64,000 bases of DNA from an uncultured Eubacteriales bacterium (GCA_964354215.1 CAYGYT010000001.1:75199-139198); one strand, 5' to 3'. Shown: positions 3,382 to 23,613, counted from the stretch's first letter. Translations and numbers: made by a program. The notes: a model not told the origin generated them from the letters alone.

Positions 3382-6300
3382 ATGAAAAGCCTAAGTAAGA
3401 AGAGCGGCTTCAGGTCAGCGACCAGCGTTGCGCTGTCGCTGGCTTTGCTGCTTTCGCTGGTCGCGATCCCTGCGTTCGGCGCCGATCCCGCGATACCCAC
3501 GACCTACGTCGCGGGTTCGCTGGTCGCTGGCAGCACGGGCATCGCCAGTGTCGTTGAGGCCACGTACCCTGAGGGCCTCGTCGGCACTGTCACAGTTGAA
3601 ACGTCGTGCACCCCGTACGTGCCGGCGGAGATCCTGCTTCAGCCGCTCGGCAACCCGACCTTGGGCGGCTCGACGGTCGCTAACGACCCCGCTGCGCTCA
3701 CGCTTCGCATTGCCGCGCAGGGTGTCGACGGCAGCGTCTTGACTACCGACGTTGTGTGCCAGGCCAGCGATACATTCGACGCGGTTCTCGCTCGGGTCAA
3801 CTCGCAGGTCGGCGCAGCCTCGTCCGTGCCGGACGATGTGAAGATCTTTGCCGGACGCAAGGGTGACTTCAATCAGCCGTACTTCAGGCTCCAGAAGGCC
3901 GGCGCGACCCCCAACCCGAGCTACCTGCAGATCTGGGACACTTACACCGCGGGCCCGCTCCTGAAGGGCGTCGCGGACCTGCTCGTCTTCGGCCCCGCCT
4001 CGATCACCGAGCAGCGTGACACCGGCCCGGCCCTCCCTGGCAACAGCGGCGACGGTAGCCGCGTCCAAGGTAACGGCGCCAATGGCACGGTGGAGCCCTT
4101 CCCGGCGAACGGCTGGTACTTCGATCCGCTACTCGGCTCCAGGTTCGCGACCGCGACCATCGAGTACGGTTCGTGGGCGGAAGGCGTTGTCGGCAGGGCC
4201 AACTGGCGGGCTCAGGTCGACACCATGACCGGGCAGTACACGGGTATTCGCATCATCGATACTGGTTCTAGCGTCGAACCAACGATAAGCGCGTACCTCG
4301 CCACCGCAAGTCGCAGTGCGAGCATCGGCACAGGCAAGCTGACGTTCAGACTGGGCAACGGCGAGCGGAAGCCGGCCGCCAACTACGGCGTGACGATCGC
4401 CCCGAACACGGGCAGCCCGTTCAAGACCGGCACCGTGGTTGCGGGCAAGACCGAGACGTTCACGGTCACTGCGCCGCTTCCGGCAGTACCCGCCGACTGG
4501 GCTGGACTCGAGGATGCCTACAACGGCATCCGGGTCCTGTACCCGAAAGAGTTCACGTTCTCGGGAACCGGGAACGCCACCGCATCGCCCGCGCCGGCCA
4601 GCCAGTCCGTAGTGACTAGCAACACGGCCTACGGCCCGATGGTCACGGTCACGGGCTTTGTCACGGCTGCGGGCGTGGTTCCCCCCATCACCGTCCAGTC
4701 CACTCTCGTAGCGACCCAGACCGCCGGTGTCTACAACACCGTCAAGGTCTGGATCCGCAACGTGGGTACGAATGGCGAGACGTGGGTACCGCTGTTCTGC
4801 CCGCCCAACTCCCCGATGAGCATCAGCGTCGCTCCTGACGTGGTCTCAAGGGTCGGGATGGAAGCGGAGCGGAACCGCGCAGGCGGCAAGACCCTCCTGA
4901 GGGCCATCGCCTACGACAAGTTCAACAACAAGATCCCGAATCCGGTCTTCCCGACGCCCACCATCTCTGGCACGAGCGACGGCGCCGCGATCGCTGCCGG
5001 CCCGACCTCGGATCAGTTCATCTGGACGCTCGCGAAGACGGCGGGCGCCAACACGGCGAACGTCTCCTACGCGAGCGTGGCCGGTTCGCTCACGGTCAAC
5101 ACGACCGGCATCGGCGAGCCCGCTACGATCAAGGTTGTCCCGGTGGACTCGGACGGCAAGCACTGGGGCACTCCGAAGACCACGTGGCTGAACGCCGAGA
5201 ATCCGGCGTTCTACCTCCAGCTGGTCGACGCCAACGGCAACCCGACGTCGTTCCTGAACGACTCGGCCGGCTTCGAGGATGACCTGTTCAGCTTCAGGTC
5301 AGTCTCGGTAGAGGGCGTCGATCATTCGAGGAACAACATCCACATCGAGCACCTGTGGTCGCGCTCGTCGTTCACGTTGAGTGGCCCGTACTCTGGCATT
5401 CCGGGCAACTTCGGCTTCGGTTCCGCCTTCGGTCCTGACACGTGGACGCTGCTCGCGACCGCGAACGGCGGCATAGTCGCGCCGGCTCCGTCCAGCACGA
5501 TCACCATCAGCGCCAAGGACCCGGCCAAGGTCGGCGTTCCCGCCAAGCTGAGGGTCTCGGCTGTGGCGACCGCGCCCGCCGAGTATGCGGTCAACGACTA
5601 CATCTACAACGACAAGAGTGACGACTTCGACGACAGTGCCTTCGGTTACGCGAAGGGCGACGGCACCGAGTCTGTAGCGCTCACCGCGCAGGTCGTCGAC
5701 GCGTACGGGACCCCCGTGACCGGTTCGACAGTCGCGAACGTCCCGCTCACGTTCACGCTCGACAAGTTCGCGGGTGCCAACGGCATCCTGCCGACCGGCT
5801 ACGTCTACGACACCAGGACGGACGCCTCCGGCGTCGCCACCGTCACCGTGAAGGCGTACCGCGGCACGTTCAAGACAGAGTACGTCCCGGACTTCGGCGA
5901 TAGCTCGTGGTTCACCCCGATCAGGGCGAGCATCGCGATCACGTCGACGACTGACTGGGCGAATCCGTGCTCGGCCGCTACCGCGTGGGAGGGCTACGGC
6001 TTCACGTACTTCCACGGCGGCCAGATGAGCGCTTCGCTCGAGCAGACTCCTGAGTGCGAAGACAAGGACGTCCTGCTCGCCGACGGCACCGACTCCGCGA
6101 AGTTCGAGGCCTGCGTGAAGGACCCTGCGTTCCTCACGCCGGTCGCGAACTGGGGCGTGAAGTTCACGACGAACTTCGGCTCGTTTGACGCTTCGGGCAC
6201 CAAGACCGTCGAGACGACGACCGGTGCCGACGGCAAGGCGAGCGTCACTATCAAGAGCAGCACCGCCAACGATGCGAAGACGCCGAAGGCTACCCTGTGG

Positions 6301-7752
6301 GCGATCGACCGCCAGCGGACGGCCGTGATGAAGGAAGTCACGTTCACCGACTGGAAGGCCGTCGCTCAGGTGCTCGAGCCCACCAAGCGCGCAGGCGACC
6401 GTGCCTACGCCAAGGTCCGCGTCTCGTACGAGAACTTCAAGACGGGCGCGAAGTTGATGTGGGACAAGTGCGACGGGGCCTTCAGTGCCGATAGCGCTCA
6501 TGTGTACGGTCCGCAGCTCGCGTGCCAGGCATCGGGTTGCCACGGGCCTTGTCTCCCTGACCCGTGCTCCGACATGGCCGCCACATGCGCCCTCCATACG
6601 AACCACACCAAGTGGGCCTCGAAGGCCGAAACGGACACGAACGGTGACGGCAAGTACGATTCCGTCGACATCCTCATCCCGGCGAAGGACGCGGAGGACG
6701 ACTCGCACACACTCGAGTCGGCTGGCAAGCGCTACGCGCTCGTCGGAGGCAGCGTGACAGGCAGAATGTGGAACGGCACGGTCTTCTACAACCAGAAGAG
6801 CATCGTTGCCGCCTACGCCCGTCCCGAGGTGAACTTCATCAAGGAGGCCACGCTCAACGCCGAGGGCACGCAGTTCAGCACTGGCATGAGCGTCACCGGC
6901 ACCAAGTTCACACCTGGCGAGGGTGCCCCTGACTACGTCGATGCCGTCGATATCTACCTCGGCGACATCACGACCGTGGACACCATGCAGCTGGCTGATT
7001 CGGGTCCGTTCCACGGCCAGGATCCGCACCTGCTGGGCAAGGCCTATGTGGGTCGCGACGGCAGCCTGCTGCCAGTGGTCGCTGCCAGCGCGAAGCTCGC
7101 TCAGATGGCGCCTGGTTCCTACGACATCACTGTTGACGGCTTGGTCTTCAAGAACGGCCTGACGATCAAGAACATGTTCGGCATGGCCTCGGTCGTCATC
7201 GGCAATGCGAAGAGGGCCAGCGGCGTGTACTTCGTCAACCCAAGGATGAAGTACCCCGTGAACGTGAACGCTTTCGGTGCGGACAAGGTCGAAGTGTGGG
7301 CTGGTGCTACCAAGCTCGCCTACTCCTCGTCGACCGGCATGTTCACGCTTCCTGCCAGCCGTATCCCAGCCGGCCTCAGCTACATCACGGCGAAGGCCAT
7401 GTGGAGCAACGGCTACACGACCGTTGTGAACGTCAAGGTCTACCGCCAGTCCCCGCTCAAGTTCACGACCCCGTCGCTCGCCGTGTCCGGCCGGACTCTC
7501 AGGGTCGCGGGCAAGGTCTCGGGCACTCCTGAGATCAACGGCAGCACGGCGTTCCTGATCCGCGTGAGCTTCCAGCGCAATATCAGCGGGCGCTGGGTCA
7601 CGCAGAGTGTGAAGTACGTCCGGGCTTCGAGGGGCGCCTACAGGGCAGCCGCTACGGCGAATGCCGCGGGTGTGTGGAGAGCTGTCGTGTTCCATTACGA
7701 CGCCGCTCACCCGACGTCCCAGAAGGCCTCCAACAGCAAGTCCGTGAGGTAG
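3382..7752 (+). CDS. large secreted cell-surface protein with multiple bacterial Ig-like (Big_1/invasin-type) domains; S-layer or adhesin candidate
   Basis: 1456 aa. Signal peptide MKSLSKKSGFRSATSVALSLALLLSLVAIPAFGADP. Repeated segments of the type VALTAQVVDAYGTPVTGSTV...DASGVATVTVKA typical of Big domains. Ala/Thr/Gly/Val-rich. Carries the C-terminal module shared with four neighbouring secreted proteins. Confidence 0.8.
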   Translation: MKSLSKKSGFRSATSVALSLALLLSLVAIPAFGADPAIPTTYVAGSLVAGSTGIASVVEATYPEGLVGTVTVETSCTPYVPAEILLQPLGNPTLGGSTVANDPAALTLRIAAQGVDGSVLTTDVVCQASDTFDAVLARVNSQVGAASSVPDDVKIFAGRKGDFNQPYFRLQKAGATPNPSYLQIWDTYTAGPLLKGVADLLVFGPASITEQRDTGPALPGNSGDGSRVQGNGANGTVEPFPANGWYFDPLLGSRFATATIEYGSWAEGVVGRANWRAQVDTMTGQYTGIRIIDTGSSVEPTISAYLATASRSASIGTGKLTFRLGNGERKPAANYGVTIAPNTGSPFKTGTVVAGKTETFTVTAPLPAVPADWAGLEDAYNGIRVLYPKEFTFSGTGNATASPAPASQSVVTSNTAYGPMVTVTGFVTAAGVVPPITVQSTLVATQTAGVYNTVKVWIRNVGTNGETWVPLFCPPNSPMSISVAPDVVSRVGMEAERNRAGGKTLLRAIAYDKFNNKIPNPVFPTPTISGTSDGAAIAAGPTSDQFIWTLAKTAGANTANVSYASVAGSLTVNTTGIGEPATIKVVPVDSDGKHWGTPKTTWLNAENPAFYLQLVDANGNPTSFLNDSAGFEDDLFSFRSVSVEGVDHSRNNIHIEHLWSRSSFTLSGPYSGIPGNFGFGSAFGPDTWTLLATANGGIVAPAPSSTITISAKDPAKVGVPAKLRVSAVATAPAEYAVNDYIYNDKSDDFDDSAFGYAKGDGTESVALTAQVVDAYGTPVTGSTVANVPLTFTLDKFAGANGILPTGYVYDTRTDASGVATVTVKAYRGTFKTEYVPDFGDSSWFTPIRASIAITSTTDWANPCSAATAWEGYGFTYFHGGQMSASLEQTPECEDKDVLLADGTDSAKFEACVKDPAFLTPVANWGVKFTTNFGSFDASGTKTVETTTGADGKASVTIKSSTANDAKTPKATLWAIDRQRTAVMKEVTFTDWKAVAQVLEPTKRAGDRAYAKVRVSYENFKTGAKLMWDKCDGAFSADSAHVYGPQLACQASGCHGPCLPDPCSDMAATCALHTNHTKWASKAETDTNGDGKYDSVDILIPAKDAEDDSHTLESAGKRYALVGGSVTGRMWNGTVFYNQKSIVAAYARPEVNFIKEATLNAEGTQFSTGMSVTGTKFTPGEGAPDYVDAVDIYLGDITTVDTMQLADSGPFHGQDPHLLGKAYVGRDGSLLPVVAASAKLAQMAPGSYDITVDGLVFKNGLTIKNMFGMASVVIGNAKRASGVYFVNPRMKYPVNVNAFGADKVEVWAGATKLAYSSSTGMFTLPASRIPAGLSYITAKAMWSNGYTTVVNVKVYRQSPLKFTTPSLAVSGRTLRVAGKVSGTPEINGSTAFLIRVSFQRNISGRWVTQSVKYVRASRGAYRAAATANAAGVWRAVVFHYDAAHPTSQKASNSKSVR

Positions 7753-7969: not shown

Positions 7970-10864
7970 GTGGTGCCCCATGGAGTTTGGATTCCCAACG
8001 TGCTCTCTTCTCGCAGACGATCCCTCCCGCCGTTGAACCGGGGCGCGGCCCTCGCGGTCGTGCTGCTGGGTGCCGCGCTGGTCTTGGCGCTGGCGCCTGG
8101 GGCGTACGCCGCGTCTCACGGCGCTGGCGTAGTCGTCGCGCTCGAGCGCTCGGCAACCTCAGAGCAGGTGGCGGCAGCGGTCAGAGCGGTTGGTGGCGAG
8201 GTCATCCACACTGTTCCGAGCACGCGCTCGCTTCTTGTGGCCACGGACGCGGGCGCACGGGCGACTCTCGTGGCCAAGAGAGTCTCAGCGATGCCGGGCG
8301 TGCGGTACGCCGAGCCCAATCGACGCGTCCACGCGCAGTTCGTTCCGAACGACCCGATGTACACGCTGCAATGGGGTTTGCCGGCGGTGAACGCGCCAAT
8401 CGCCTGGGACGGGGCGCGCGCGTCTTCGGCAGTGAAGGTGGCTGTGATCGACAGCGGCGCCTACTTCGGGCACCCGGACCTGACCGGCATCCTCGACAGC
8501 ATGCATGACTACGACTTCGTGAACATGGACAGCGATGCGAGCGACGACAACGGCCATGGCACGCACGTGACCGGGATTGTCGCCGCGATCGCCAACAACG
8601 GGCAGGGCGTCGCTAGCTTGGCGGGGCTCGGTGCGCAGGGTGCGACCGGCGGCGTACGCGTGATCCCCATCAAGGTCCTCGACGAGAACGGCGACGGGTG
8701 GGACGAGGACGTGGCGCTCGCCATCAGACACGCCGCGGATTCGGGTGCGCGAGTCATCAATCTGAGCATGGGCGGTCCTGGCTCGACGCCGTTGAGCGAA
8801 GCGGTAGCGTACGCGCGCGCCAAAGGCTGCGTGCTGGTGGCGGCCGCGGGCAATTCTGGACTCGACCGGATCCTCTACCCCGCTGGTGTACCCGGGGTGA
8901 TCGGCGTCGCGAGCCTGGACTCCGAGCTGCGGCAGGCGATGTTCTCGAACTCGGGAGCGCATGTCGACGTCAGTGCACCCGGTGAACAGGTCTTCTCTAC
9001 GTCGTGGCCCGGCGGTGCCGCAAGTACCGGCTCGCTCTATGGCTACATGTCGGGAACGTCGATGGCGACTCCGTTCGTGGCGGCTGAGGCAGCGCTGCTC
9101 TTCTCGACGATGCCAAATGCGACGAACGCTCAGGTGGAGAGCGCGATCATGTCCTCGGCACGCGACCTGGGGCCAGTGGGCCGTGACGATGACTACGGAC
9201 GAGGACTGATCGACGCGGCTGCCGCCCTGAGCCAGCTCACGGGCTACGACTACAGCCCGCCCGTCACCGCGGCAAGCGGCATCCCGTCCGGATGGAGCTC
9301 GCGAGATGTGACGGTGACGCTCAAGGCGACGGACGACCTGTCCGGTGTGGCGACGACCCAGGTGCGTGTTGGAGCCGAGGACGCGCGCGCGTACACAGCT
9401 CCTTTCGCGGTGACCGCCGAGGGTAGCACCAGGATCGCGTTCTGGTCGGTGGATCGGGCGGGCAACCACGAGGACCAGAAGACCGCCACGGCGCGCATCG
9501 ACAAGACGCCGCCCACGACCACGAGTGATGCGGTGGCGCGCTACGTAAGAAGCGCCACAATCAGGTTCTCGCCGGTCGATCGGCTGTCCGGTGTCGCGGC
9601 GACTCGTTGGAATCTCGACGGCGCCCAGGGGTCCGGCACGGTTGTCACGACCACGGTACGTGGGTTCCACACGCTCACCTTCACGTCCACCGACGGCGCG
9701 GGCAACGCGGAGCCCACGCGTGCCATCGCCTTCGGGGTCGTGAACTCGGCCGACGACGTGCTTCCCCTCACGACCGCGGCACTCGGCGTACCAGGTGCGT
9801 GGGTGAACACGCCCGCCACCATCACGCTCGTGTCCTCGGGCAGCGGGCTGTCCGGCGCGGGCACCTACTACTCACTCGACGAGGGTCCCGCGATCGCGTA
9901 TTCGAGCCCGTTCATGATTAGCCGCGAGGGGACGACCACGCTCGAGTTCTGGTCTTCTGCCGAGGGGGTCGCCGAACTGCACAAACTCGGCTACGTACGC
10001 GTCGACACCTCTCCGCCCAGCGTCGCACTCGACGCCCTGCCCTCCTACGAGGACGTCGCAATCGTGACCGCCACCGCGTCGGACACCGTTTCGGGCATCA
10101 CACCCCAGTCCCTGGGATGGTCGCTCGACGGCGTTGGGTGGGAGTCGGGGTCGACCGCCGTGCTCGATCGACCGGGGCGCTACGCTGTCGTGTTCAGGGC
10201 CTTTGACCTGGCGGGTAACGAGGCACAGGCGACCGCGCACGTGCTCGTGACGGGCGCCTCGGCAATCTCGCTTGCCAAGCCCGCCGTAGCGACTCCTGCG
10301 TGGGGAACAGCCTGCACGCTTGCGGGCGCAGTTTCACCGGCGCCGGCGAGTCCGGCGACGGTGACGATCCAAGCGCGCGTGCCCGGAACCACCACGTGGG
10401 CGCGCGTTGCCACGACCAGGACCGCAGGCGGCGCGTTTTCGGCGAGAGTCCTGCCGCGACGGCGCCTGGAGTACCGCGCTGTGTTCAGTGGCGATGATGT
10501 GCTCAGGGCGGCGGCGCCCAGCAATCGCGTCACGCTCGCGCCGAAGGTGTCGCTCACGCCTGTTTCCGGGCTGCCCGCATCGGTACGCAAAGGGGCGCTG
10601 CTCCAACTGAGTGGACGCGTTGTGCCGCAACACTCGGCCTCGGTCTACCTCATGATCGAGCGGCCCGTCGAGCGGCCCTCCGGCAGCACGTGGGTGAAGA
10701 GCCGCCGCATCCGCCTTGCATTGCATGCCGATGGGCGCGATGGCTCGACCTGGCGAGTTGCGCTCAGGCTGCCGCAGGGCCGATGGCGCGTGCGTGTGTA
10801 CCACGCCGCCGATACGCTGCACGCCAGCACCTACTCGACCGCTCGCTACGCACGTGTCCGTTAG
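7970..10864 (+). CDS. secreted S8 (subtilisin-family) serine peptidase with C-terminal Ig-like repeat modules
   Basis: 964 aa. Signal-like AALAVVLLGAALVLALAPGAYA and an N-terminal propeptide-like region. Catalytic motifs VAVIDSG (Asp), HGTHVTG (His) and SGTSMATP (Ser). These are followed by repeats of the form W..V.VTL.A.D..SGV....Y..DG....Y..P..V..EG.T...ID.T.P and the shared C-terminal module. Start uncertain (GTG 7970 or 8000). Confidence 0.9.
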   Translation: MVPHGVWIPNVLSSRRRSLPPLNRGAALAVVLLGAALVLALAPGAYAASHGAGVVVALERSATSEQVAAAVRAVGGEVIHTVPSTRSLLVATDAGARATLVAKRVSAMPGVRYAEPNRRVHAQFVPNDPMYTLQWGLPAVNAPIAWDGARASSAVKVAVIDSGAYFGHPDLTGILDSMHDYDFVNMDSDASDDNGHGTHVTGIVAAIANNGQGVASLAGLGAQGATGGVRVIPIKVLDENGDGWDEDVALAIRHAADSGARVINLSMGGPGSTPLSEAVAYARAKGCVLVAAAGNSGLDRILYPAGVPGVIGVASLDSELRQAMFSNSGAHVDVSAPGEQVFSTSWPGGAASTGSLYGYMSGTSMATPFVAAEAALLFSTMPNATNAQVESAIMSSARDLGPVGRDDDYGRGLIDAAAALSQLTGYDYSPPVTAASGIPSGWSSRDVTVTLKATDDLSGVATTQVRVGAEDARAYTAPFAVTAEGSTRIAFWSVDRAGNHEDQKTATARIDKTPPTTTSDAVARYVRSATIRFSPVDRLSGVAATRWNLDGAQGSGTVVTTTVRGFHTLTFTSTDGAGNAEPTRAIAFGVVNSADDVLPLTTAALGVPGAWVNTPATITLVSSGSGLSGAGTYYSLDEGPAIAYSSPFMISREGTTTLEFWSSAEGVAELHKLGYVRVDTSPPSVALDALPSYEDVAIVTATASDTVSGITPQSLGWSLDGVGWESGSTAVLDRPGRYAVVFRAFDLAGNEAQATAHVLVTGASAISLAKPAVATPAWGTACTLAGAVSPAPASPATVTIQARVPGTTTWARVATTRTAGGAFSARVLPRRRLEYRAVFSGDDVLRAAAPSNRVTLAPKVSLTPVSGLPASVRKGALLQLSGRVVPQHSASVYLMIERPVERPSGSTWVKSRRIRLALHADGRDGSTWRVALRLPQGRWRVRVYHAADTLHASTYSTARYARVR

Positions 10865-10871
10865 CACGCGC

Positions 10872-11534
10872 ATGCAGACGCCCGCATCACGCCTCGCCGC
10901 GCTTGAGGCCGTCCTCTTTGACCTGGACGGAACGCTCATCGACAGCGTCGGACTCATCTTGGCGTCGTTCAGGTACGCGACCGAAACCGTTCTTGGCGAA
11001 GCGCTGCCCGACGACGTGATGATGCGTGATGTAGGACTACCGCTGGCCCGCCAGATGCGCGACTTCTCGGCTGAGCACGCCGAGGAGCTCCTGCGCGTCT
11101 ACCGCGAGCACAACGCCCGCTGGCACGACGAGCTCGTTCGCGCGTATCCCGAGACGGCCGAGACGCTCGTCTGGCTTGCCGCACGCGGACTCAGGCTCGG
11201 CGTGGTGACGTCGAAACACCAAGCGATGGCCCGCCGAGGACTCGCCGCATTCGACCTCGCGCGCTTCTTCGACGTCGTGGTGGGCGCGGACGACGTCACG
11301 CACCACAAGCCCGACCCGCATCCGTTGCTGGTCGCTGCCGAGACGCTCGGCGTGCCGATCGAACGATGCGCGTACGTAGGCGACAGCCCGCACGACATGG
11401 CCGCGGCGCGCGCGGCCGGATGCGTGGCGATCGCGGCGACGTGGGGCATCGGCACGCGCGAGGCGCTGGTTGCGGCGGGCGCGGAGCTGATGCTCGATAG
11501 CATGGTAGAGGTGCGGGAGGCGTTCGACGCGTGA
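10872..11534 (+). CDS. HAD-superfamily hydrolase (phosphoglycolate phosphatase / PpaX-like)
   Basis: Trimmed to the ATG at 10872 because the upstream part of the track ORF overlaps the peptidase gene. Motif I FDLDGTLIDS, motif II VVTSK, motif III K...GDSPHD. Confidence 0.85.
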   Translation: MQTPASRLAALEAVLFDLDGTLIDSVGLILASFRYATETVLGEALPDDVMMRDVGLPLARQMRDFSAEHAEELLRVYREHNARWHDELVRAYPETAETLVWLAARGLRLGVVTSKHQAMARRGLAAFDLARFFDVVVGADDVTHHKPDPHPLLVAAETLGVPIERCAYVGDSPHDMAAARAAGCVAIAATWGIGTREALVAAGAELMLDSMVEVREAFDA

Positions 11535-11680: not shown

Positions 11681-14600
11681 ATGAGACTCGGAGATTCGAC
11701 ACATTCGCTCACGGCCTCGAGTGCCAGGGTTCTCCTGGTGCTGACCGCAGCTGCCATTGCACTCGCGCTCAGCGGCTCCGCGCTTGGCGAGGCCTTCCCG
11801 CTCACCACGGCTACGGCGGACCAGAACCCGTGGAACGACGTGTGGCTCACCGCTTCGGTCGGCGTTTCGCTCGAGGCGACGGACGGGGCGGGCGGCGCTG
11901 GTCCCGGCATCGATCGCATCGAGTACTGGATCACGCCTGAGGGCGGTTCGCCGTCGTTCGAGTCGACGACAACGAATCCGGCCTCGATCACGGTCTCGAC
12001 GGAGGGCACCACGACCTTCCAGTTCCGAGCCGTGGACAGCGCCCTGCAGGAGGAAGCGACCCAGACCACTACCGTCAAGATCGACCTCACAGACCCTGAA
12101 GTGACCGCTACGCCGATCGGCGACAACACGCCGAACGTGTCGTTCGACCTCTCGGTGGCCGACGCCATCTCGGGGCCGGCCGTGTTCGAGTACCGTATCG
12201 ACGAGGGCACGACCCAGACCGTCTCGGGAGTGGCGACCACCACACCCGCCGTCACGAAGTACGGCGACCACACGCTCCACTACTACGCGAAAGACGTCGC
12301 GGGCAGGGAGAAGAGCGGCTCAGTCGGCTTCTTCGTCACCGACGTGACCGCGCCTGTCACGACCGCCTCGCCCCCCAAGGCTGGCTGGGACGACGTGTGG
12401 CTCACGGCGACGCACGGCGTCTCGCTCCTGGCGGTTGATGGTCCCGACGGCTCGGGCGTGAACAGGATCGAGTACTGGATCACGCCTGAGGGCGGTTCGC
12501 CGGCGTTCGAGTCGACGACAACGAATCCGGCCTCGATCGCGTTCTCGACGGAGGGTACGACCACGTTGCAGTTCCGAGCCGTGGACAGCGCCCTGCAGGA
12601 GGAAGCGACCCAGACCACTACCGTCAAGATCGACCGCTCGGGACCCGACGTCCTCGTCGACAAGGGTCCCGACGCGCCGAGTGTGACGGTCACGATCACT
12701 GCGACCGACCCCTACTCGGGCCTGAAGGAACTCCGGTATCGCGCCGACTCCGACCCCGCTACGATCACCGCTCCTGGTGGGCAGGCGGTCAGGACGGTCA
12801 CCGGCCCGCTCGGCGTCCACTCTGTCACGTATGAGGCAGAGGACTCGATCGGACACGTGACGCAGGGCGTGGTGTTCTTCACCATCACCGACGAGACGAA
12901 ACCTTCGGTGGTAGCTACGATCCTCGGCAACAACACGACGAGCGCCCGCGCGAGCCTCGTCGCGTCCGACGGCGTCGGGGGTTCGGGCGTGGATAGGATC
13001 GAATACCGCGTCGACAGAGGCAGTACCACCTTCATCACGACACAGACGGTCGTGGGCGAGACGACGACCACCCCCGCGATCACGAGCGCAGGGTCCTACA
13101 CGCTGTTCTACTCGGTGCGAGACGTGGCCGGCAACGAGACCACTGGTACTGTCGCGTTCACCGTCGGCTCGAGTGGTGGCGGCGGAGGCGGCGGCGGAGG
13201 CGGTGGAAGTGGCGGCGGAGGCGGCGAGCCTCCGGACACGACGCCGCCGACCGTTAGCGCAGCTGTCTCGCTCTCGGGATGGACGAACGCCGCGGCCGTG
13301 AAGGTGACAGTCACCGCGTCCGACGACTCAGGCAATGTGACAGTCACGTACACGGGTGCCGCTCAACCTCAGACGGGCGCCTCACCGCAGACCGCCGTCG
13401 TCAACGTGACTGCCGAGGGCGTGACCACGGTCCGCTTCTCGGCGAGCGACGCGACGGGCCTCAAGGCCGAAGGGAGCGCGGTCGTGCAAATCGATCGCAC
13501 GTCGCCTCCCGCGCCGGTCAAGCCCTCGTACGTGTTCCTCACCGCCGACTCGGTCGGGCTCGCGTGGCTGGGCGTCGAGGACGCGCTTTCGGGCATGCTG
13601 CGCTACGACGTCTACGACGGGTCGACCAAGGTCGGCTCCACTACCGGCACGTCGTTCTCGGCGGGGGGTTTGGCGGCTAGTTCTGCCCACAGCTACGCAG
13701 TCGTCGCGGTCGACAAGGCGGGCAACCAGTCGCCGAAGAGCGATGTCCTCGCGGTCACCGTCCCGGTGGGCGAGGGCTCGGTGAACGTGGCTCCCGGCGC
13801 GAACGTGGCCGCGAGCGTGAACGTCCCCGTGGCAGCCGGTGGCACCCTCCCCGTGAAGGCGGCGTTCTCCAGCGTCACGAAGGCAGGCAAGCTGAGGATC
13901 ACGAGAGCGCTCACCCCGCCTCACCCCGCTGACCCGGACTTCGAGTTCGTGAACCAGTACTTCGACATCTCCTTCGACGGTACGTTCGTCGGTGCCGTGA
14001 CCGTCACGCTTCCCTACGATGCGGCGATGTCGGATGCCCGTGCCCGCAACCTCAAGCTCAAGCACTGGAAGAACAACGGTTGGGAGGACGTGCCGATCAC
14101 CGTCGACCTCGTTCGGCATACGATCACGGCCTCCGTAGCGTCGCTCTCGCCGGTCGCCCTCGCCGAGCGGCCGGGAGTGAACACCACGACTCGGGTAGTC
14201 ACACCCTCGAAGCTGGCGCCTGGCTACGGGCGCGCAGCGGTCGTCGTCGCGCGACTCGTCGACGCGTCGGGAACGGCGCTGCCACACAAAGCCATCAAGG
14301 TCGAAGTGAGCCGAAACAGGATTGCGTGGAGTGCCTCGGCGACCATGACGCCCGTGCGCGGCAAAGCGGGAAGCTACTCGATCGGACTGGCGACGATCGG
14401 CGGCGGCAGGACCTACGTGCGCGTGAGATTCGCCGCTGACGACTTCAACCAGGCGTCGAGCGCTGTAGTCACCGTCTTGCCGCAAGTTGACCTCACTGCC
14501 GTGAACGTGGCCGCGTCCCTGACTCGGACGACGACGCTGTCGGGAAGCATCAGGCCGGCACACCGCGCCGCAGTCACCGTCGAGCTGCGGAGGCAGATCT

Positions 14601-14770
14601 CCCGCACCAAATGGAGCACGAAGCGTGTGAGCCTTAAGACGAATGCGGCCGGGAAGTGGAGCGCGCGCATGACGTTCACTCCCGGCACGTGGAAGCTGCG
14701 AGTGGTGGCGCCGACCGACGCGAGTCACTCGGCGAGCGCGAGCCAGTATCGGGTCCTGTACGTGCGGTAG
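11681..14770 (+). CDS. secreted surface protein with at least 6 Ig-like repeat modules (OmpL47/chitobiase-C-like pattern), one FN3 domain, a poly-Gly linker and the shared C-terminal module
   Basis: 1029 aa. Signal peptide ...LLVLTAAAIALALSGSALGEA. Repeats include IEYWITPEGGSP.FESTTTNPASI..STEGTTT.QFRAVD....E.TQTTTVKID. FN3-like PPAPVKPSYVFLTADSVGLAWLGVEDALSGMLRYDVY...YAVVAVDKAGNQS. Confidence 0.85.
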   Translation: MRLGDSTHSLTASSARVLLVLTAAAIALALSGSALGEAFPLTTATADQNPWNDVWLTASVGVSLEATDGAGGAGPGIDRIEYWITPEGGSPSFESTTTNPASITVSTEGTTTFQFRAVDSALQEEATQTTTVKIDLTDPEVTATPIGDNTPNVSFDLSVADAISGPAVFEYRIDEGTTQTVSGVATTTPAVTKYGDHTLHYYAKDVAGREKSGSVGFFVTDVTAPVTTASPPKAGWDDVWLTATHGVSLLAVDGPDGSGVNRIEYWITPEGGSPAFESTTTNPASIAFSTEGTTTLQFRAVDSALQEEATQTTTVKIDRSGPDVLVDKGPDAPSVTVTITATDPYSGLKELRYRADSDPATITAPGGQAVRTVTGPLGVHSVTYEAEDSIGHVTQGVVFFTITDETKPSVVATILGNNTTSARASLVASDGVGGSGVDRIEYRVDRGSTTFITTQTVVGETTTTPAITSAGSYTLFYSVRDVAGNETTGTVAFTVGSSGGGGGGGGGGGSGGGGGEPPDTTPPTVSAAVSLSGWTNAAAVKVTVTASDDSGNVTVTYTGAAQPQTGASPQTAVVNVTAEGVTTVRFSASDATGLKAEGSAVVQIDRTSPPAPVKPSYVFLTADSVGLAWLGVEDALSGMLRYDVYDGSTKVGSTTGTSFSAGGLAASSAHSYAVVAVDKAGNQSPKSDVLAVTVPVGEGSVNVAPGANVAASVNVPVAAGGTLPVKAAFSSVTKAGKLRITRALTPPHPADPDFEFVNQYFDISFDGTFVGAVTVTLPYDAAMSDARARNLKLKHWKNNGWEDVPITVDLVRHTITASVASLSPVALAERPGVNTTTRVVTPSKLAPGYGRAAVVVARLVDASGTALPHKAIKVEVSRNRIAWSASATMTPVRGKAGSYSIGLATIGGGRTYVRVRFAADDFNQASSAVVTVLPQVDLTAVNVAASLTRTTTLSGSIRPAHRAAVTVELRRQISRTKWSTKRVSLKTNAAGKWSARMTFTPGTWKLRVVAPTDASHSASASQYRVLYVR
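11918..12086 (+). repeat. intragenic direct repeat, copy 1 (169-nt high-identity core)
   Basis: Hand alignment to 12467..12635 shows about 8 mismatches in 169 nt. Lower-identity similarity extends from about 11831. Confidence 0.85.
12467..12635 (+). repeat. intragenic direct repeat, copy 2 (offset 549 nt = 183 codons)
   Basis: Same core sequence as 11918..12086, in frame. Encodes IEYWITPEGGSPAFESTTTNPASIAFSTEGTTTLQFRAVDSALQEEATQTTTVKID. Confidence 0.85.
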
Positions 14771-16433: not shown

Positions 16434-16463
16434 TCCGGCCGATGGCAGCATCTTCGCTCTCCC

Positions 16464-17336
16464 GTGGTATCGATGGCTGACGGGCGAAACATGGACGGCG
16501 ACGAGTTCCTCGGCGGGCGCGAGGTCCACGGCTGCGACGAAGAGGATCGCGTCGTGATCGAGGCGCGCGACGTGACAAAGTGCTACCACCTCGAGGGCAT
16601 CGACGTTGAGGCGCTGCGCGGCGTGGATCTTCAGATTTGCGCCGGGGAGATGCTCGCCATCATGGGACCATCGGGATCCGGCAAGTCGACGCTGATGCAC
16701 ATCATCGGCCTGCTCGATCATCCGACCGAAGGTACCGTCACGGTCGAGGGCGAGGACGTCTCCGACATGGAACCGAACCAGCTTGCCGCGGTGAGGAACA
16801 AGCGGATCGGGTTCGTGTTCCAGTCGTTCAATCTGCTCCCGCGAACGTCGGCCACGGCGAACGTCGAGCTCCCGCTCATCTACTCTGGCTTTCCGGGCGC
16901 AAAGCGTACCCAGCTCGCGCGGGCAGCGCTCGAGCGGGTAGGTCTGGGCGACCGTCTCGGCCACTTCCCCAATCAGCTCTCGGGCGGCCAACAGCAGCGA
17001 GTCGCAATCGCGCGCGCATTGGTCACCGAGCCGAGCATCGTGCTCGCCGATGAGCCCACCGGAAACTTGGACTCGCGCTCAGGCGTCGAGGTCATGGCGA
17101 TCCTGCAGGAGCTCAACAATCTGGGGATCACCGTCGTGATCGTCACCCACGACGCCAACGTGGCGCGACATGCGAAGCGCGTCGTGCACACCCGGGACGG
17201 CCTGATCGTGCGAGAGGAAGCTGTCGACGACCGCGTGAACGCGATCGAGGAGCTCGCCGAGCTGAACGGCGGGGCCGACGCAGCGGCGGCCGGCCCTGTT
17301 CCTGAAAGGCCGACCGCACAGGAGTCCGCGACGTGA
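16464..17336 (+). CDS. ABC transporter ATP-binding protein (MacB/LolD-type)
   Basis: Walker A GPSGSGKST, signature LSGGQQQRVAIARAL, Walker B IVLADEPT. Start could instead be the ATG at 16491. Confidence 0.9.
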   Translation: MVSMADGRNMDGDEFLGGREVHGCDEEDRVVIEARDVTKCYHLEGIDVEALRGVDLQICAGEMLAIMGPSGSGKSTLMHIIGLLDHPTEGTVTVEGEDVSDMEPNQLAAVRNKRIGFVFQSFNLLPRTSATANVELPLIYSGFPGAKRTQLARAALERVGLGDRLGHFPNQLSGGQQQRVAIARALVTEPSIVLADEPTGNLDSRSGVEVMAILQELNNLGITVVIVTHDANVARHAKRVVHTRDGLIVREEAVDDRVNAIEELAELNGGADAAAAGPVPERPTAQESAT

Positions 17337-18535
17337 ACCTCTTCGAGAGCTTCCGCATCGCACTCAGGGCGCTCAATGCCAACAAGGTTCGAAGCGCGCT
17401 CACGATGCTCGGCGTCATCATCGGCGTGGCCGCGGTCATCCTGCTCGTGTCGATTGGGACCGGCGTCCAGGACCAGGTTACCGGGTCGATCGAGGGCCTC
17501 GGTTCGAACTTGCTGTTCGTGTTCCCGTACAACATGGAGGCGGCCCAGGAGGGCGGCGGGGGTGGTCCGGGAGGCATGTCATCGACGAAGCAGTTCACGA
17601 ACGCCGACGCCGACCTGCTCAGCCGCCGTCTCGGGAGCGCGGCCATTGTCGTACCGGTTGTGCAGGCCCCGGGGCAGCTCCGGGTCGGGAACCGGACGAT
17701 GCGTACGACCATCGCCGCGGGCACGGCCGAGGGCGACGAGGTCTTCACCGCCGAACTGGATGCCGGACGCCACTACACCCGTAGCGAGTGGGCCTCTGCA
17801 GCGCGCGTAGTCGCCATCGGCAGTTCGGTGCGCAACAAGCTCTTCCCATCTGAGAACCCGATCGGGAAGCAGCTGAACATCAACGGACAGCGCTTCGCGG
17901 TGATCGGCCACTACAAGGCCCAGGGTGGCGGGTTCGGCGGGGACCAGGACAACCAGATCTACATGCCCAATACCACGGCGCAGCGCCTCATTGGCGTCGA
18001 CGACCTGAGCCAGATCACCATCAAGGCCAACGACCCCGAGGACGTCGATCTCATCAAGGCGCAAGTCGAACGCGTGCTTCGCCCGCGCTTCGGTGAGGAT
18101 TTCACCGTGTTCACGCAGGAGCAGACGCTCGGCATTCTATCCCAGCTGCTCGGGACGCTCACCGCTATGCTTGCCGGCCTTGCGAGCATCTCGCTCCTGG
18201 TCGGCGGTATCGGCATCATGAACATCATGCTCGTGAGCGTGAGCGAGAGGACGCGCGAGATCGGCATCAGAAAGGCTGTCGGTGCTCGCACCTACGACAT
18301 CCTGTCCCAGTTCGTCATCGAGGCGGTGGTGCTCTCCGTGGTGGGAGGAGCGCTCGGTATCCTCATGGGCAGCGGCGGCGCATTCGCCCTGCAAACGTGG
18401 ATTCCGGCTGTCGTGACGCCGTGGGCCGTGGTTCTCGCTTTCTTCTTCTCGGCGGCGGTGGGCGTCTTCTTCGGCGTGTATCCCGCGTACCGTGCGTCGC
18501 GGCTCGATCCGATCGAGGCGCTGCGGTACGAGTAG
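17333..18535 (+). CDS. ABC transporter permease (MacB/FtsX family)
   Basis: 400 aa. 4-nt GTGA overlap with the ATPase gene. N-terminal TM, a large extracytoplasmic domain, and a C-terminal FtsX-type 3-TM bundle with the REIGIRKAVGA motif. Confidence 0.9.
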   Translation: MNLFESFRIALRALNANKVRSALTMLGVIIGVAAVILLVSIGTGVQDQVTGSIEGLGSNLLFVFPYNMEAAQEGGGGGPGGMSSTKQFTNADADLLSRRLGSAAIVVPVVQAPGQLRVGNRTMRTTIAAGTAEGDEVFTAELDAGRHYTRSEWASAARVVAIGSSVRNKLFPSENPIGKQLNINGQRFAVIGHYKAQGGGFGGDQDNQIYMPNTTAQRLIGVDDLSQITIKANDPEDVDLIKAQVERVLRPRFGEDFTVFTQEQTLGILSQLLGTLTAMLAGLASISLLVGGIGIMNIMLVSVSERTREIGIRKAVGARTYDILSQFVIEAVVLSVVGGALGILMGSGGAFALQTWIPAVVTPWAVVLAFFFSAAVGVFFGVYPAYRASRLDPIEALRYE

Positions 18536-19609: not shown

Positions 19610-19753
19610 TACCGCCGCCCGTACAGAGCGGCTGGTCGGAACGTGCTGAGCAGGGCCCTGCATGGAGCACCCGAACTGGGTATACATTCCTGTGATTGTT
19701 CTGCACGCCGCAAGTGCTGGCACCTGCGGGACACAAGGGGGAGGGGAGCTGTC

Positions 19754-21058
19754 ATGAAGATCGAGGTCCGAGTCGTCTCGTGGCGAAGGGCTACCGTTGC
19801 CATTCTCGTGCTCTGTCTGCTCACGGGAGTCGCGTGGGTCTCGCTTCCGGCGCACGCTCAGTCTGGCTCGAGGCAGGTGTCTGCTGCGCTCTCACCCTAT
19901 GTCTGGGACGAAGCGTGGTTCGGCGACCGCTACATCAACTACCTCCACACCCCCAAGGGCGTCGCTGTCGATAGTGCGGGCAGAGTCTACGGCTCCAGCG
20001 TAGGGAACAACCGGATCGTGCGGTACGGCGTCGATGGAAGCCGTGAGCTCAGCTGGGGGCAGCGCGGTTCGGCGCTCGGGCAACTCCTGTACCCGCGCGA
20101 CGTTGCGGTCGATGGCGAGGGGAACGTCTACGTCGCCGATACCGCCAACGACCGCGTACAGAAGTACAGCCCCACAGGGAAGCCCATTCTCGTATTCGGC
20201 GCGACCGGCCGCGGTCTCGGAGAGCTCTTGGGGCCTCAGGGTGTTGCCATCGGGCTTCTCGGCGCGGTGTACGTCTCGGACTGGAGCAACGATCGCATCC
20301 AGGTTTACTCGGCGAGCGGCGCGTACGGGTTTCCCATCGGCGGGACCGGAAGCGCGCCGGGTCAGCTCGACGGGCCGAGCGGGCTTGGAACGGACTCTGC
20401 CGGCAACGTGTACGTGGCCGACTACTTCAACCACCGCGTCCAGGTCTTCGCGCCCGGCGGAGAACTCGTGAGGGTGATCGGCAAGAAGGGCACCGCGCTG
20501 GGCGAATTCAACGGCCCGGTGGACGTCGCTGTGGGTCTGGACGGCAGCATGTTCGTGGCCGATAGCGGGAACCGAAGGGTGCAGCGGCTTACCATTCAGG
20601 GGGTCTGGTCCGAGTTCGGACCACAGACAAGCCCCGCGGGCTACGACGACACCAACGTCGCCAGCGTCGCCGTGGATCGTGCGGGCAACGTCTACGTGGC
20701 CAACACGAACGACGACCGGATCGACCGGTTCACGCCGCGGGGCGCCAAGGTGGTCCTGACGAAACCCGTCCTGCTGACGAAGTACCCCCGTGCGGGACGC
20801 TCGTTCGAGGTGAGCGCATCGTCTCGGCCGGTGCACCACTCGATGCGCGATCGTGTCTACTGGGAGTTGAGAAAGACGGGCTCGACGCGCGTCACCATCG
20901 TCAAGCCGACCCGGAACTACCCCGGACGCCGCTGGGTCTACTACAAGAAGTCGTTCAAGCTCCCTGCGGGTTCATACTCGATACGCGCGGTGTCCCCCGC
21001 GGACAGCGAGCACGCGAAGACGACGAGCGCGTATCTCTACTTCACTCTGCGACGCTAG
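19754..21058 (+). CDS. secreted NHL-repeat (six-bladed beta-propeller) protein carrying the shared C-terminal module
   Basis: Trimmed to the ATG at 19754 (RBS GGGGGAGGGGA). Signal peptide ...VAILVLCLLTGVAWVSLPAHAQ. Repeated P.GVAVD..GNVYVAD..N.RV.. units. Confidence 0.85.
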   Translation: MKIEVRVVSWRRATVAILVLCLLTGVAWVSLPAHAQSGSRQVSAALSPYVWDEAWFGDRYINYLHTPKGVAVDSAGRVYGSSVGNNRIVRYGVDGSRELSWGQRGSALGQLLYPRDVAVDGEGNVYVADTANDRVQKYSPTGKPILVFGATGRGLGELLGPQGVAIGLLGAVYVSDWSNDRIQVYSASGAYGFPIGGTGSAPGQLDGPSGLGTDSAGNVYVADYFNHRVQVFAPGGELVRVIGKKGTALGEFNGPVDVAVGLDGSMFVADSGNRRVQRLTIQGVWSEFGPQTSPAGYDDTNVASVAVDRAGNVYVANTNDDRIDRFTPRGAKVVLTKPVLLTKYPRAGRSFEVSASSRPVHHSMRDRVYWELRKTGSTRVTIVKPTRNYPGRRWVYYKKSFKLPAGSYSIRAVSPADSEHAKTTSAYLYFTLRR

Positions 21059-21154: not shown

Positions 21155-21231
21155 GGGCCCGTAGCTCAGTTGGTTAGAGCGCACGGCTGATAACCGTGAG
21201 GTCGATGGTTCGAATCCATCCGGGCCCACCA
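21155..21231 (+). tRNA. tRNA-Ile (anticodon GAT), CCA encoded
   Basis: Cloverleaf read by eye. Acceptor GGGCCCG/CGGGCCC, D-arm GTAGCTCAGTTGGTTAGAGC, anticodon loop CT-GAT-AA, T-arm GGTTCGAATCC, 3' ACCA. Confidence 0.95.
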
Positions 21232-21489
21232 TGAATCTGCGCGACTCTCGCCTCGGCCTTCAGCCGGGGCGTCGGTCTTGGTGGGTGTAGAACACGTGTG
21301 GTTTGCTCAGCGGTATGGCACGTGCGAGCGGTTTTGGTGTATGAGGGTTGGCGGAAGATCGCGAGCTACCGGCCGGAACTGAAGCTGCCATTGGGTTTGC
21401 GTTGAATCGATTGATTCTGGTTGGTGGACGTTTGGAGTTGCGCGTAGACTCGTTCGTGCAGTCGTCAGCTCAAAGGAGGTCGGTCGCCG

Positions 21490-23613
21490 ATGCGCACCGA
21501 ATCAGGACTTAGGCTACATCCGGGCCGCAGGCGGGTCGCGTGGCTCACAATCGTCGCCCTCGTGGCGTCGCTCGTAACTCCGACGGTCTCTCTTGCGGCG
21601 CCAGCGGTATCCGGGGGAGACACAACGTACTCGGCCACGGGGCGCGTGAGTGCCGCGGCAGTCGCCACGATCACGACAGAGGTGACGGTCACGCCGACCG
21701 GCGCGTTCTCAGGCTGGGTGAACGCGGCGAACGTCGCAATCACGCTCACCACGACGGACGTGGCCCCACCGACTCTACCCACGGACCAGCAGGTGTCCTA
21801 CCGGACGTACAAGGCCGGCGACGCGCCTGGTAGCATGACCACCGGGCCGTCACCCGCTACTGTCACCCCTGCTGTCTCCGCCGAGGGAACGACGGTCGTG
21901 GAGTTCTACTCTTCGAACACCGCCTCAGCGACGCAAGAGCCGACGCAGACACGCACCGTGCGTATCGATCGGACCGCGCCGGAGCTCGGCACATCGCTCG
22001 GGGCGTCTCTGAACGGTACTGCCACGATCTCGGTATCGACGACCGACACGATGTCGGGAGTCGCGTCCGTGAGCTACTCGATTGATGGTGCGGCCGCTGT
22101 CACGACCACCACGGCCAAGCCGACGATCATACTCGGCGGAGCAGGCGCTCACACTGTCGGAGTCTCGGCCAAGGACGCGGTGGGCAATCAGTCCTCAACC
22201 TCGACGGTCGGTCCGTTCACCATCACCGACGGAGTCGCGCCCACGACCTCGATCAGCGGCGTGCCCGCTGGCTGGTCGTCGACAAACGTCACCTTCACGC
22301 TCGGCGCAGTGGACAACCCCGGTGGTACCGGCGTGGCGTCGACGATCTATCGGCTGAACCAGACCGGGAGCTTCGTTCCGTACACGGGGGCAGTCGCCGT
22401 CAGTGCCGAGGGCACGACAGTCGTCGAGTTCGCGTCGATCGACAGGGCGACGCCCACTGCCAACCAGGAAGCCACCAAACAGGCGATCATTCGCATCGAC
22501 AAAGGGGCGCCGACGTCCTCTATCAGCGGTGCTGACATCGCCTGGAGGTCTTCGAACGCCACATTCACCCTGTCGGCCACCGATACGCCCAACTACTCGA
22601 TGGTGGCTGGCATCCGCTATCGGCTGGGTGCCAGCGCTCTGGCGACGTACACAGCCCCGGTCGTCATCTCCGCCGAGGGCACGACAGACATCGAGTACTT
22701 CGCCGTCGACTACGCGGGCAACCGCGAGACGACGCGCAGCGCTTCCGTACGAATCGACAGGACTAACCCGACGGTCTCGGTTGTGGCGTCAACGACCTAC
22801 GAGCAGAGCGGCGTCGTCACAATCACGGGTGCGGATGCGCTCTCAGGCGGCGTGATGGTCTACACCAGCCTCGACGGGGGCGCGTTTGCAGCGACCCCGG
22901 GCAGCGCCCAGGTGATCACGACGGGAGCTGGGAGCCACACGGTCAACTACTACGCGACCGACGCGGCCGGCAACCGCACCACGACCGCACTGGTGACGTT
23001 CCAGGTCACGCGGCAAACCGCGGTCCAGCTGACGTCGAAGACCTCCACGCTGAGGAACACCACGATCCCCGCCCGGACCACGGTGAAGGGCAAGCTCACC
23101 GACGCCGGTGCTGGCGTTGCCGGCAAGCGGGTCGTGCTCGACTACTCGTCGTACAGCACCTTCGTCGGCATGCGCTCCGTGGCGGGAACGACCGCCGCCG
23201 ACGGCTCCTTCAGCTTCAACGTGAGCCTGTCTTCCCGCACGTTCTATCGAGTGCGCTTCGCTGGCGATACTGACTACAAAGCCGCCTCGAGCGGCACGAT
23301 CGCATACAAGCCAAAGGTCGCGCTCTCCCTGAAAGTTGCGAGTAAGGCCAAGCCCCTGCGTCGCTTCTACGCCAGTGGCGTGATCAAGCCGGTGCACTCG
23401 CGGGGCAGACGCGTCTACATCGAGTGGTCCACGAGGCCCGGGGGCAGGCGTTCGGGGTACGTGTGGGCGACGGTTACGCCCAGGGGCAGCTATTCCTCGT
23501 ACCTCGCGCCCCTCACCCTGAGGAAGGGCACGTGGTACGTGCGTGCAGTCGCACCGGATGATGGGGCGCACGCCACGACGGCGACCGCGGCGAAGCGAGT
23601 GATCGTTCGCTAG
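21490..23613 (+). CDS. secreted surface protein with about 5 Ig-like repeat modules plus the tandem C-terminal beta-sandwich-like modules
   Basis: 707 aa, RBS AAAGGAGG. Signal ...VAWLTIVALVASLVTPTVSLAAPA. Repeats such as GWSSTNVTFTLGAVDNPGGTGVASTIYRLN...YTGAVAVSAEGTTVVEFASID...IRIDKGAPT. Confidence 0.85.
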   Translation: MRTESGLRLHPGRRRVAWLTIVALVASLVTPTVSLAAPAVSGGDTTYSATGRVSAAAVATITTEVTVTPTGAFSGWVNAANVAITLTTTDVAPPTLPTDQQVSYRTYKAGDAPGSMTTGPSPATVTPAVSAEGTTVVEFYSSNTASATQEPTQTRTVRIDRTAPELGTSLGASLNGTATISVSTTDTMSGVASVSYSIDGAAAVTTTTAKPTIILGGAGAHTVGVSAKDAVGNQSSTSTVGPFTITDGVAPTTSISGVPAGWSSTNVTFTLGAVDNPGGTGVASTIYRLNQTGSFVPYTGAVAVSAEGTTVVEFASIDRATPTANQEATKQAIIRIDKGAPTSSISGADIAWRSSNATFTLSATDTPNYSMVAGIRYRLGASALATYTAPVVISAEGTTDIEYFAVDYAGNRETTRSASVRIDRTNPTVSVVASTTYEQSGVVTITGADALSGGVMVYTSLDGGAFAATPGSAQVITTGAGSHTVNYYATDAAGNRTTTALVTFQVTRQTAVQLTSKTSTLRNTTIPARTTVKGKLTDAGAGVAGKRVVLDYSSYSTFVGMRSVAGTTAADGSFSFNVSLSSRTFYRVRFAGDTDYKAASSGTIAYKPKVALSLKVASKAKPLRRFYASGVIKPVHSRGRRVYIEWSTRPGGRRSGYVWATVTPRGSYSSYLAPLTLRKGTWYVRAVAPDDGAHATTATAAKRVIVR

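Follow-up and report, generated by a model that had tools for sequence, protein, structure and literature searches.

Why do five neighbouring genes that encode otherwise different secreted proteins all close with the same domain of about 100 residues, and what could this domain do for its carriers? The question is raised by a 64,000-nucleotide stretch of DNA catalogued under an uncultured Eubacteriales bacterium (GCA_964354215.1 CAYGYT010000001.1:75199-139198), referred to here as the window. Five open reading frames (ORFs) on its + strand, lying within 20 kb, share their last 100-111 residues in a sequence alignment, and each translation begins with a signal-peptide-like segment. In all five, the shared C-terminal module ends at the last sense codon, with the stop codon directly next. 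The initial annotation of this locus had proposed a lineage-specific module for cell-envelope anchoring or sorting. The analysis described here places the module in a large domain family whose C-terminal, polycationic version would, on balance, probably serve as a non-covalent envelope retention domain. The genes, their modules and the immunoglobulin (Ig)-like units that precede three of them are listed below.

3382..7752, + strand: gene 1, a secreted Big_1/Ig-like giant of 1456 aa with the module (ORF; Big_1 match 8e-10; signal-peptide-like N-terminus)
7441..7749, + strand: module copy 1 (Ig giant), divergent and without the P-x-H histidine (hidden Markov model (HMM) E 6e-6; net charge +14, isoelectric point (pI) 11.8; AlphaFold2 predicted local distance difference test (pLDDT) 81.7)
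7970..10864, + strand: gene 2, a secreted S8 subtilase with four OmpL47-type barrel domains, an Ig-like unit and the module (Peptidase_S8 1.6e-53; barrel_OmpL47 1.2e-47)
10262..10528, + strand: Ig-like unit before module copy 2, ending YRAVFSGDD... (alignment; hhalign to the module profile E 2.6e-4; net charge +8)
10529..10861, + strand: module copy 2 (S8 protein; HMM E 1.9e-22; net charge +14, pI 11.8)
11681..14770, + strand: gene 3, encoding a secreted protein of 1029 aa (rep3) with six OmpL47-type barrel stretches, a poly-Gly linker, an Ig-like unit and the module (domain scans; identical to database protein P0008)
14183..14467, + strand: Ig-like unit before module copy 3, ending YVRVRFAADD... 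(alignment; hhalign; net charge +9)
14468..14767, + strand: module copy 3 (rep3), the copy modelled by AlphaFold2 (HMM E 8.6e-16; pLDDT 96.5; net charge +13, pI 11.9)
19751..21058, + strand: gene 4, encoding a secreted NHL-repeat beta-propeller with the module (NHL 2.6e-29; translation)
20750..21055, + strand: module copy 4 (NHL protein; HMM E 6.4e-16; net charge +16, pI 10.9)
21490..23613, + strand: gene 5, encoding a secreted protein of 707 aa (rep5) with four OmpL47-type barrel stretches, an Ig-like unit and the module (domain scans; identical to database protein P0009)
23011..23298, + strand: Ig-like unit before module copy 5, ending YRVRFAGDTD... (alignment; hhalign; net charge +8)
23299..23610, + strand: module copy 5 (rep5; HMM E 5.8e-19; net charge +18, pI 11.4)

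The five C-terminal modules are homologous. Pairwise BLASTP links them transitively (S8-rep3 8e-11, rep3-rep5 1e-6, rep5-NHL 5e-6, S8-NHL 7e-5), with only a weak match for the module of the Ig giant (0.02). An independent HMM was built from 92 family members from elsewhere, each at most 40% identical to any window module, and was run on six-frame fragments of the window, so that circularity was avoided by leaving out close relatives of the window modules. This HMM matches all five C-termini at the E-values listed above, from 1.9e-22 for the S8 copy to 6e-6 for the Ig giant, and detects no sixth copy in the six frames of the 64-kb window, where the next-best fragment scores 0.17. The copy of the Ig giant is a divergent member that lacks both the P-x-H histidine and the leading motif, with its predicted strand order unchanged. 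The alignment of the five C-termini in the initial annotation is thus confirmed, and the motifs recorded there occur as written: SGSIRPAH, SGVIKPVH, SGRVVPQH and SSRPVH, the G-x-W-x-x-R...D-x-x-H stretch, and a terminal V-R or L-R-R. One detail has to be revised. The leading V-x-V-x-P segment, which had been taken for a strand of the module, is present in the sequences but is coil in the AlphaFold2 model (residues 1-10), and is probably linker, or else the final strand of the unit before it, rather than part of the module core.

The second, related unit that had been noted upstream of the module in three of the proteins is real as well, its copies aligning at 20-35% identity. To judge from its weak match to the module profile (hhalign probability 43%, E 2.6e-4), it is only distantly related to the module. 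In 62 of 112 homologues the module is immediately preceded by an equivalent Ig-like unit, and the units of the window are mildly basic (net charge +8 to +9). We take their Y-R-x-x-F-x-G-D motif to resemble that of the Big_3_5 family. In one homologous locus on a 981-kb contig (L001, 2631-8513), a 1693-aa Big_3_5/Flg_new_2 protein is followed, after a gap of about 290 nt, by a separately called gene of 170 aa (P0155) made up of an Ig-like unit and a module; the two calls are probably one gene broken by a frameshift or a miscall.

The size of the family and its attachment to the C-terminus were assessed by an exhaustive profile search over 1.84 billion cluster representatives (50% identity clusters), which was used because word-indexed homology searches had found few homologues (4 and 8 matches). 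It returned 1111 representatives at E <= 1e-3 and 73 at E <= 1e-10, and domains were re-mapped locally in the best 150 of the 1111. In 134 of 149 proteins of this set the last module copy lies at most three residues from the C-terminus; the sequence closes with VR in 52 cases and with VK in 46. Across 115 aligned terminal modules, the last residue is K or R in 87% and the penultimate residue V in about 90%. In addition, a scan of one genome per species with a single motif variant (WR[LV]RAYAPA), and hence a taxon sample biased to that variant, yielded 41 loci in metagenome-assembled genomes (MAGs); 58 of the 61 module-containing ORFs at these loci have the stop codon directly after the module. 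By a rough estimate, a randomly placed 105-aa domain would be expected at the C-terminus of such proteins in about 1% of cases. Both sets show an extreme positional preference for the C-terminus, where the initial annotation had placed the module in five proteins. Many module paralogues occur per genome: the closed 2.67-Mb chromosome OY968780.1 holds at least 13 loci for the single motif variant, and two of the MAG loci (L003 and L009) contain 5-6 module genes in 12 kb each.

Terminal modules are strongly basic, with a mean net charge of +16 (+14 per 100 aa), a mean pI of 10.85 and a minimum pI of 9.4, as opposed to their passengers, which have a median pI of 5.0 and are acidic in 77% of cases. 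The window follows the same pattern, with modules at +13 to +18 and pI 10.9-11.9 and passengers at pI 4.8-5.6. The polycationic charge is not a property of the fold, because 73 non-terminal homologous copies are approximately neutral (mean +1.2 per 100 aa). Moreover, within the 26 proteins that carry several copies, the last copy has a mean charge of +13.4 compared to +4.1 for the upstream copies; the successive copies of one such protein (P0006) read -1, 0, -3.8, -2.9, -4.9, +3 and +15. The charge is thus specialised in terminal copies. In the 115-module alignment, basic residues are conserved at positions 9, 32, 45, 66, 79, 81, 98 and 103, and acidic residues are nearly absent from all columns except that of D87 (110/115). 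H35 (109/115) and H90 (88/115) are also among the most conserved polar residues; at position 90, roughly one module in four has N, Y or some other residue instead.

Where neutral copies stand in tandem inside a protein, its C-terminus is often a transmembrane helix plus K/R tail (P0017, P0024, P0027, P0054 and P0056), and such proteins seem to have another means of anchoring. A basic terminal copy and a membrane anchor thus look like alternatives, and the neutral-copy proteins may preserve an original state of the domain, before any anchor function. These distant homologues, to which P0005 and P0006 also belong, carry 3-8 tandem charge-neutral copies, followed in many of them by a coiled-coil and/or a transmembrane helix plus K/R tail; they look like members of another lineage and are low-GC-like in composition.

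No Pfam-A or NCBIfam model covers the module in the five proteins or in 70 diverse modules scanned at E <= 1. The 70 modules give scattered sub-threshold matches to Big_3_5, MG2, FixH, YtkA and DUF4493, with bMG6 also weak, and no Pfam or NCBIfam family, generic Ig-like ones included, reaches threshold. Judged by these scans, the module is a domain family lacking a model in either database. A profile search against all sequences of the PDB gave one non-significant match, to a CopC chain (E 0.3, a 23-residue hairpin). The rep3 module was modelled with AlphaFold2 from a 70-sequence alignment (pLDDT 96.5, predicted template modelling score (pTM) 0.85), with strands at residues 24-32, 38-46, 52-60, 66-72, 76-84 and 98-102 plus a short broken first strand. 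The predicted fold, of high confidence, is a seven-strand beta-sandwich of the Ig/FN3/macroglobulin (MG) type. Foldseek searches against PDB and BFVD returned Ig, FN3 and MG domains only, none at E <= 1e-3, and the top structural superposition is with A2ML1 (structure 7q61; TMq 0.71, Foldseek E 9e-3, 15% identity). Structure prediction thus yields a confident sandwich, and structural comparison generic matches only.

Four of the 70 modules match Big_3_5 (PF16640) below threshold (best E 2.9e-4) and none of the five window proteins does so at E <= 0.1; the fold class of the module agrees with Big_3_5/E-set domains in the AlphaFold2 model and in Foldseek, and Big_3_5 domains co-occur with the module in homologues. 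A distant relationship is likely, and the module appears to derive from Big_3_5/E-set Ig repeats. These repeats share its fold class but are internal, tandem and not polycationic, and have no C-terminal constraint. Likewise, the MG domains (MG2, bMG6, A2ML1 7q61), which give the best superposition, are internal to protease-trapping proteins. PPC (PF04151) was not reported on the module in the 70-module scan, although it does occur in some module-bearing proteins.

The upstream domains, surveyed in 79 representatives and independently in 54 ORFs of the MAG loci, are diverse and extracellular. Enzymes among the partners include S8 peptidases with or without PPC, a polysaccharide deacetylase and an M10 peptidase; propellers are represented by NHL, BNR/YCF48, PD40 and Sortilin domains; and the remainder comprises cadherin-like, Big, FG-GAP, CarboxypepD_reg, MG2, fn3 and PASTA domains and one PBP_like_2 solute-binding domain. 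Partners are of extracellular types, which speaks against a domain common in cytoplasmic proteins, and a hydrophobic N-terminal segment is found in 59 of 79 representatives that start with Met. As first reported, none of the five window proteins carries an SLH domain, an LPXTG signal or a lipobox (family scans, regular expressions and reading of the N-termini). A regular-expression search for LPXTG/sortase motifs in the window and locus genes found no true LPXTG signal, and a lipobox-like N-terminus occurs in only three homologues (Met-started, >200 aa; regular expression).

The host of the window is best described as Coriobacteriia-like. This assignment follows from its GyrA, which is about 80-82% identical to that of the best named relatives (Coriobacteriia MAGs, HGW-Actinobacteria-7 and an Anaerosomatales MAG), and so points to an actinobacterium. 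The named genomes with the module are nearly all uncultured Actinomycetota MAGs, labelled Coriobacteriia, Actinomycetes, HGW-Actinobacteria-7 and Thermoleophilia UBA2241, with two co-assembly bins labelled Eubacteriales. The lineage specificity claimed at the outset is supported in that every named genome except these two bins is a Coriobacteriia-like actinomycetote; it is not proven, given that a single motif variant served for scanning the genomes. The Anaerosomatales (OPB41) in culture have thin, rod-shaped cells and a wall of the Gram-positive type, and the cultured relatives live in the subsurface in close association with ferrihydrite (PMC9686372).

How could a basic terminal sandwich serve an acidic passenger? 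In the mechanism that we consider somewhat better than even, the module is an Ig/FN3/MG-like domain whose C-terminal, polycationic version keeps its passenger at the envelope without a covalent bond. The passenger (a protease, a propeller or adhesin-like repeats) would be exported by Sec and then kept tethered to the cell, while the terminal domain, often placed after a mildly basic Ig-like spacer, would bind an anionic component of the Gram-positive envelope. The ligand may be a wall polymer, teichoic-acid-like or otherwise acidic, or the anionic head groups of lipids. The binding face may be the basic/aromatic side of strands C, F and G, where residue alternation within the predicted strands would let R45, R79, R81, Y83 and K/R103 at the terminus project from the outer side of one sheet. 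An alternative or added site could be the conserved pole formed by the BC and FG loops (P33, H35, D87 and H90). Model and alignment place the conserved P33 and H35 in the BC loop and D87, H90, A91, T93 and S95 in the FG loop, and in a seven-strand FN3-type topology the two loops would share the pole beside the N-terminal linker; the H/D/H cluster could hold a structural metal.

Of the anchoring or sorting role proposed initially, the anchoring half agrees with the C-terminal position, the charge and the extracellular partners. The sorting half finds no conserved neighbouring machinery and sits poorly with monoderm relatives. The proposal is therefore only partly supported, because its function is inferred and its sorting half lacks support.

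Several observations weigh against non-covalent retention at the envelope. The C-terminal preference rests on the best 150 of the 1111 representatives, and a simple electrostatic model would call for neither a strict stop at the C-terminus nor the conserved terminal K/R. A polycationic surface would bind extracellular DNA, acidic exopolysaccharide and mineral surfaces equally. Wall-polymer biosynthesis genes or other dedicated genes are not conserved beside the module genes in the 41 loci and the window. In addition, scans of viral contigs were empty, with no fusion of the module to a phage endolysin or peptidoglycan hydrolase.

The lack of selectivity expected of such a surface leads directly to the alternative that survives best, a rather unlikely one: adhesion to external anionic substrates (extracellular DNA, acidic exopolysaccharide, humic matter, clay or iron-oxide) instead of the cell's own wall. 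The charge data fit it equally well, many passengers are adhesin-like (cadherin-like, Big, FG-GAP), and the subsurface habit of the cultured relatives, close to ferrihydrite, suits it. However, S8 peptidases, a deacetylase and a solute-binding domain would profit more from retention at the cell than from sticking to minerals, and the transmembrane anchor that neutral-copy proteins carry at the equivalent position suggests that the terminal copy replaces a cell anchor.

An unlikely alternative is that the module is a passive Ig-like spacer, terminal merely because it was inherited as part of a shuffled, two-domain 3' cassette. Its generic fold, for which Foldseek offers Ig, FN3 and MG domains without any match at E <= 1e-3, would be expected of a spacer, as would the weak sub-threshold similarity to Big_3_5, MG2 and FixH and the occurrence of distant relatives as internal tandem repeats. 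A spacer leaves unexplained, however, why +14 per 100 aa is limited to the terminal copy, why acidic residues are almost totally excluded, why the stop follows immediately in 58 of 61 ORFs and why the last residue is K or R in 87%.

Retention at the envelope could, finally, involve recognition of the terminus itself. In the most far-reaching version, which we regard as distinctly improbable, the module would serve an uncultured Coriobacteriia-like lineage of global distribution as its universal tag for surface display, with a dedicated pathway that reads the free V-[K/R]-COOH and attaches or docks dozens of secreted proteins to a specific secondary wall polymer or surface lattice. Taken jointly with this, and at the same low level of credence, such a tag would be the monoderm counterpart of C-terminal domain (CTD) display in Bacteroidota, and would do what sortase and LPXTG do in other Gram-positives.

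Still less probable is a sorting or secretion tag like type IX secretion system (T9SS) CTDs, recognised at its V-[KR] end and possibly cleaved, with the passenger becoming covalently attached to a surface polymer. The parallel is a close one in form: T9SS type A CTDs (Por_Secre_tail, TIGR04183) are likewise Ig-like sandwiches of about 100 aa, placed at the very end of many secreted proteins unrelated to each other, and a genome encodes dozens of them (PMC4804311), and the last two residues of the module are strongly conserved. The type A CTD, however, occurs only in Bacteroidota, as a signal for translocation across the outer membrane that PorU cleaves off, whereas the host of the module is of the monoderm type: an Actinomycetota lineage with Gram-positive cultured relatives has no outer membrane to cross. 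Sequence and structure offer no link either. The T9SS CTD models (PF18962/TIGR04183) gave no match to the five proteins or the 70 modules at E <= 1 (best 25 of 36 Pfam families), and the top 50 structural matches include no T9SS CTD. PorU/PorV-like neighbours were not found in the 41 loci and the window (as distinct from whole genomes, which were not scanned), and no conserved neighbouring gene could encode a processing enzyme. T9SS itself is confined to Bacteroidota (PMC5445135).

Metal binding as the main role, in a CopC/YtkA/FixH-type E-set domain with a site made of H35, D87 and H90, is the least credible alternative and highly improbable: these residues are among the most conserved polar ones and, by strand topology, would lie in loops at the same pole, but the matches behind the assignment (FixH 0.016, YtkA 0.005, CopC chain E 0.3 over a 23-residue hairpin) are sub-threshold, indicate no membership in these families and cover the F-strand hairpin and not the ligand residues, H90 is replaced in about a quarter of members and H35 is missing from the Ig-giant copy, charge and terminal position stay unexplained, and a structural metal or hydrogen-bond network would fit an anchoring domain as well.

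If the module does retain its passengers at the envelope, its closest functional analogues would be the non-covalent Gram-positive anchors catalogued in PMC5817068. Like the module, WxL domains (PF13731) are C-terminal on diverse extracellular proteins, are often encoded in clustered genes and provide non-covalent retention without a sortase (PMC5817068). They differ in length (120-190 aa, compared to about 100 aa), in their two WxL motifs and in their occurrence in Lactobacillales and Bacillales (Firmicutes), whereas the module is polycationic and Ig-like, was seen in Coriobacteriia-like MAGs and shows no sequence match to them. GW (SH3-8) and other basic modules that bind the wall or lipoteichoic acid are, as proposed for the module, basic, C-terminal and non-covalently retained (PMC5817068), but GW modules have an SH3-like fold, form tandem repeats and belong to other families, without a Pfam match. 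None of LysM, WxL, SH3b/GW, SLH, CWB1, CWB2, SPOR, PGB and ChW matches the module (Pfam scans; catalogue in PMC5817068), and no non-covalent anchor family in that catalogue is a single polycationic Ig-like sandwich. The module represents a domain family without a model and with a probable anchoring role.

Should this role hold true, one HMM would predict most of the surface proteome, including proteases, propeller proteins and adhesins, of a widespread and almost entirely uncultured subsurface and soil lineage (OPB41/Anaerosomatales-like Coriobacteriia). A new fold type would join the short list of non-covalent Gram-positive anchoring modules, and a compact candidate display tag would become available for engineering. 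At the minimum, a large family has been defined with a clean positional rule and a contrast between basic terminal and neutral internal copies, which makes the hypothesis directly testable.

The five carriers show further features of their own. The protein of gene 2 has a fervidolysin-type prodomain beside its S8 subtilase domain (Pfam/NCBIfam scans). The OmpL47-type beta-barrel domain (NF047446, E 1e-38 to 1e-52), found in 4-6 stretches in genes 2, 3 and 5, takes its name from a Leptospira surface protein; the host here is a Coriobacteriia-like actinobacterium. In gene 3 these stretches are near-identical internal repeats, and a poly-glycine linker SSGGGGGGGGGGGSGGGGG in the middle of the gene (13169-13225) separates them from the C-terminal half. 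For gene 4, the ORF was listed from GTG 19643 (19643-21058); ATG 19751 agrees with a 435-aa orthologue (P0010) and is probably the true start. A second NHL protein is encoded at 58048-59331 on the - strand and, in contrast to the secreted NHL protein at 19751-21058, has neither a signal peptide nor the module.

The surroundings of the module genes vary. No conserved machinery emerged from the neighbour survey of the 41 loci and the window, where what recurs is limited to generic ABC ATPases, in 8 loci, and a two-component system, in 3-5 loci; a histidine kinase lies within 6 kb of module genes in five loci (L012, L014, L017, L026 and L029), and a response regulator in three. Between genes 3 and 4 of the window, a MacB-type tripartite transporter operon (14964-18535) encodes an HlyD-family adaptor, an ABC ATPase and a MacB_PCD/FtsX permease. 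It was considered as a part of the system and rejected, as it is not a conserved neighbour in other genomes, and is left unlinked to the module because only generic ABC ATPases recur elsewhere. A gene for a HAD-family hydrolase (10872-11534) follows the S8 gene, with a probable ATG 8 nt past the S8 stop codon; a longer ORF, listed from 10716, reaches back into the part of the S8 gene that encodes the module, and a start there is probably not real.

Elsewhere in the window, gyrA (384-2963) is followed downstream by isolated genes for tRNA-Ile(GAT) (21155-21231) and tRNA-Ala(TGC) (44055-44130), an arrangement that resembles the origin-proximal layout of Actinobacteria. Rfam detected no RNA family in the window beyond these tRNAs. 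On the - strand, a giant ORF of 3125 codons (29477-38854) contains Glycoamylase, GH94 supersandwich and GH94 catalytic domains and, by this domain composition, resembles a cyclic beta-1,2-glucan synthase or phosphorylase; its first ~190 codons look non-coding, and its true start probably lies downstream.

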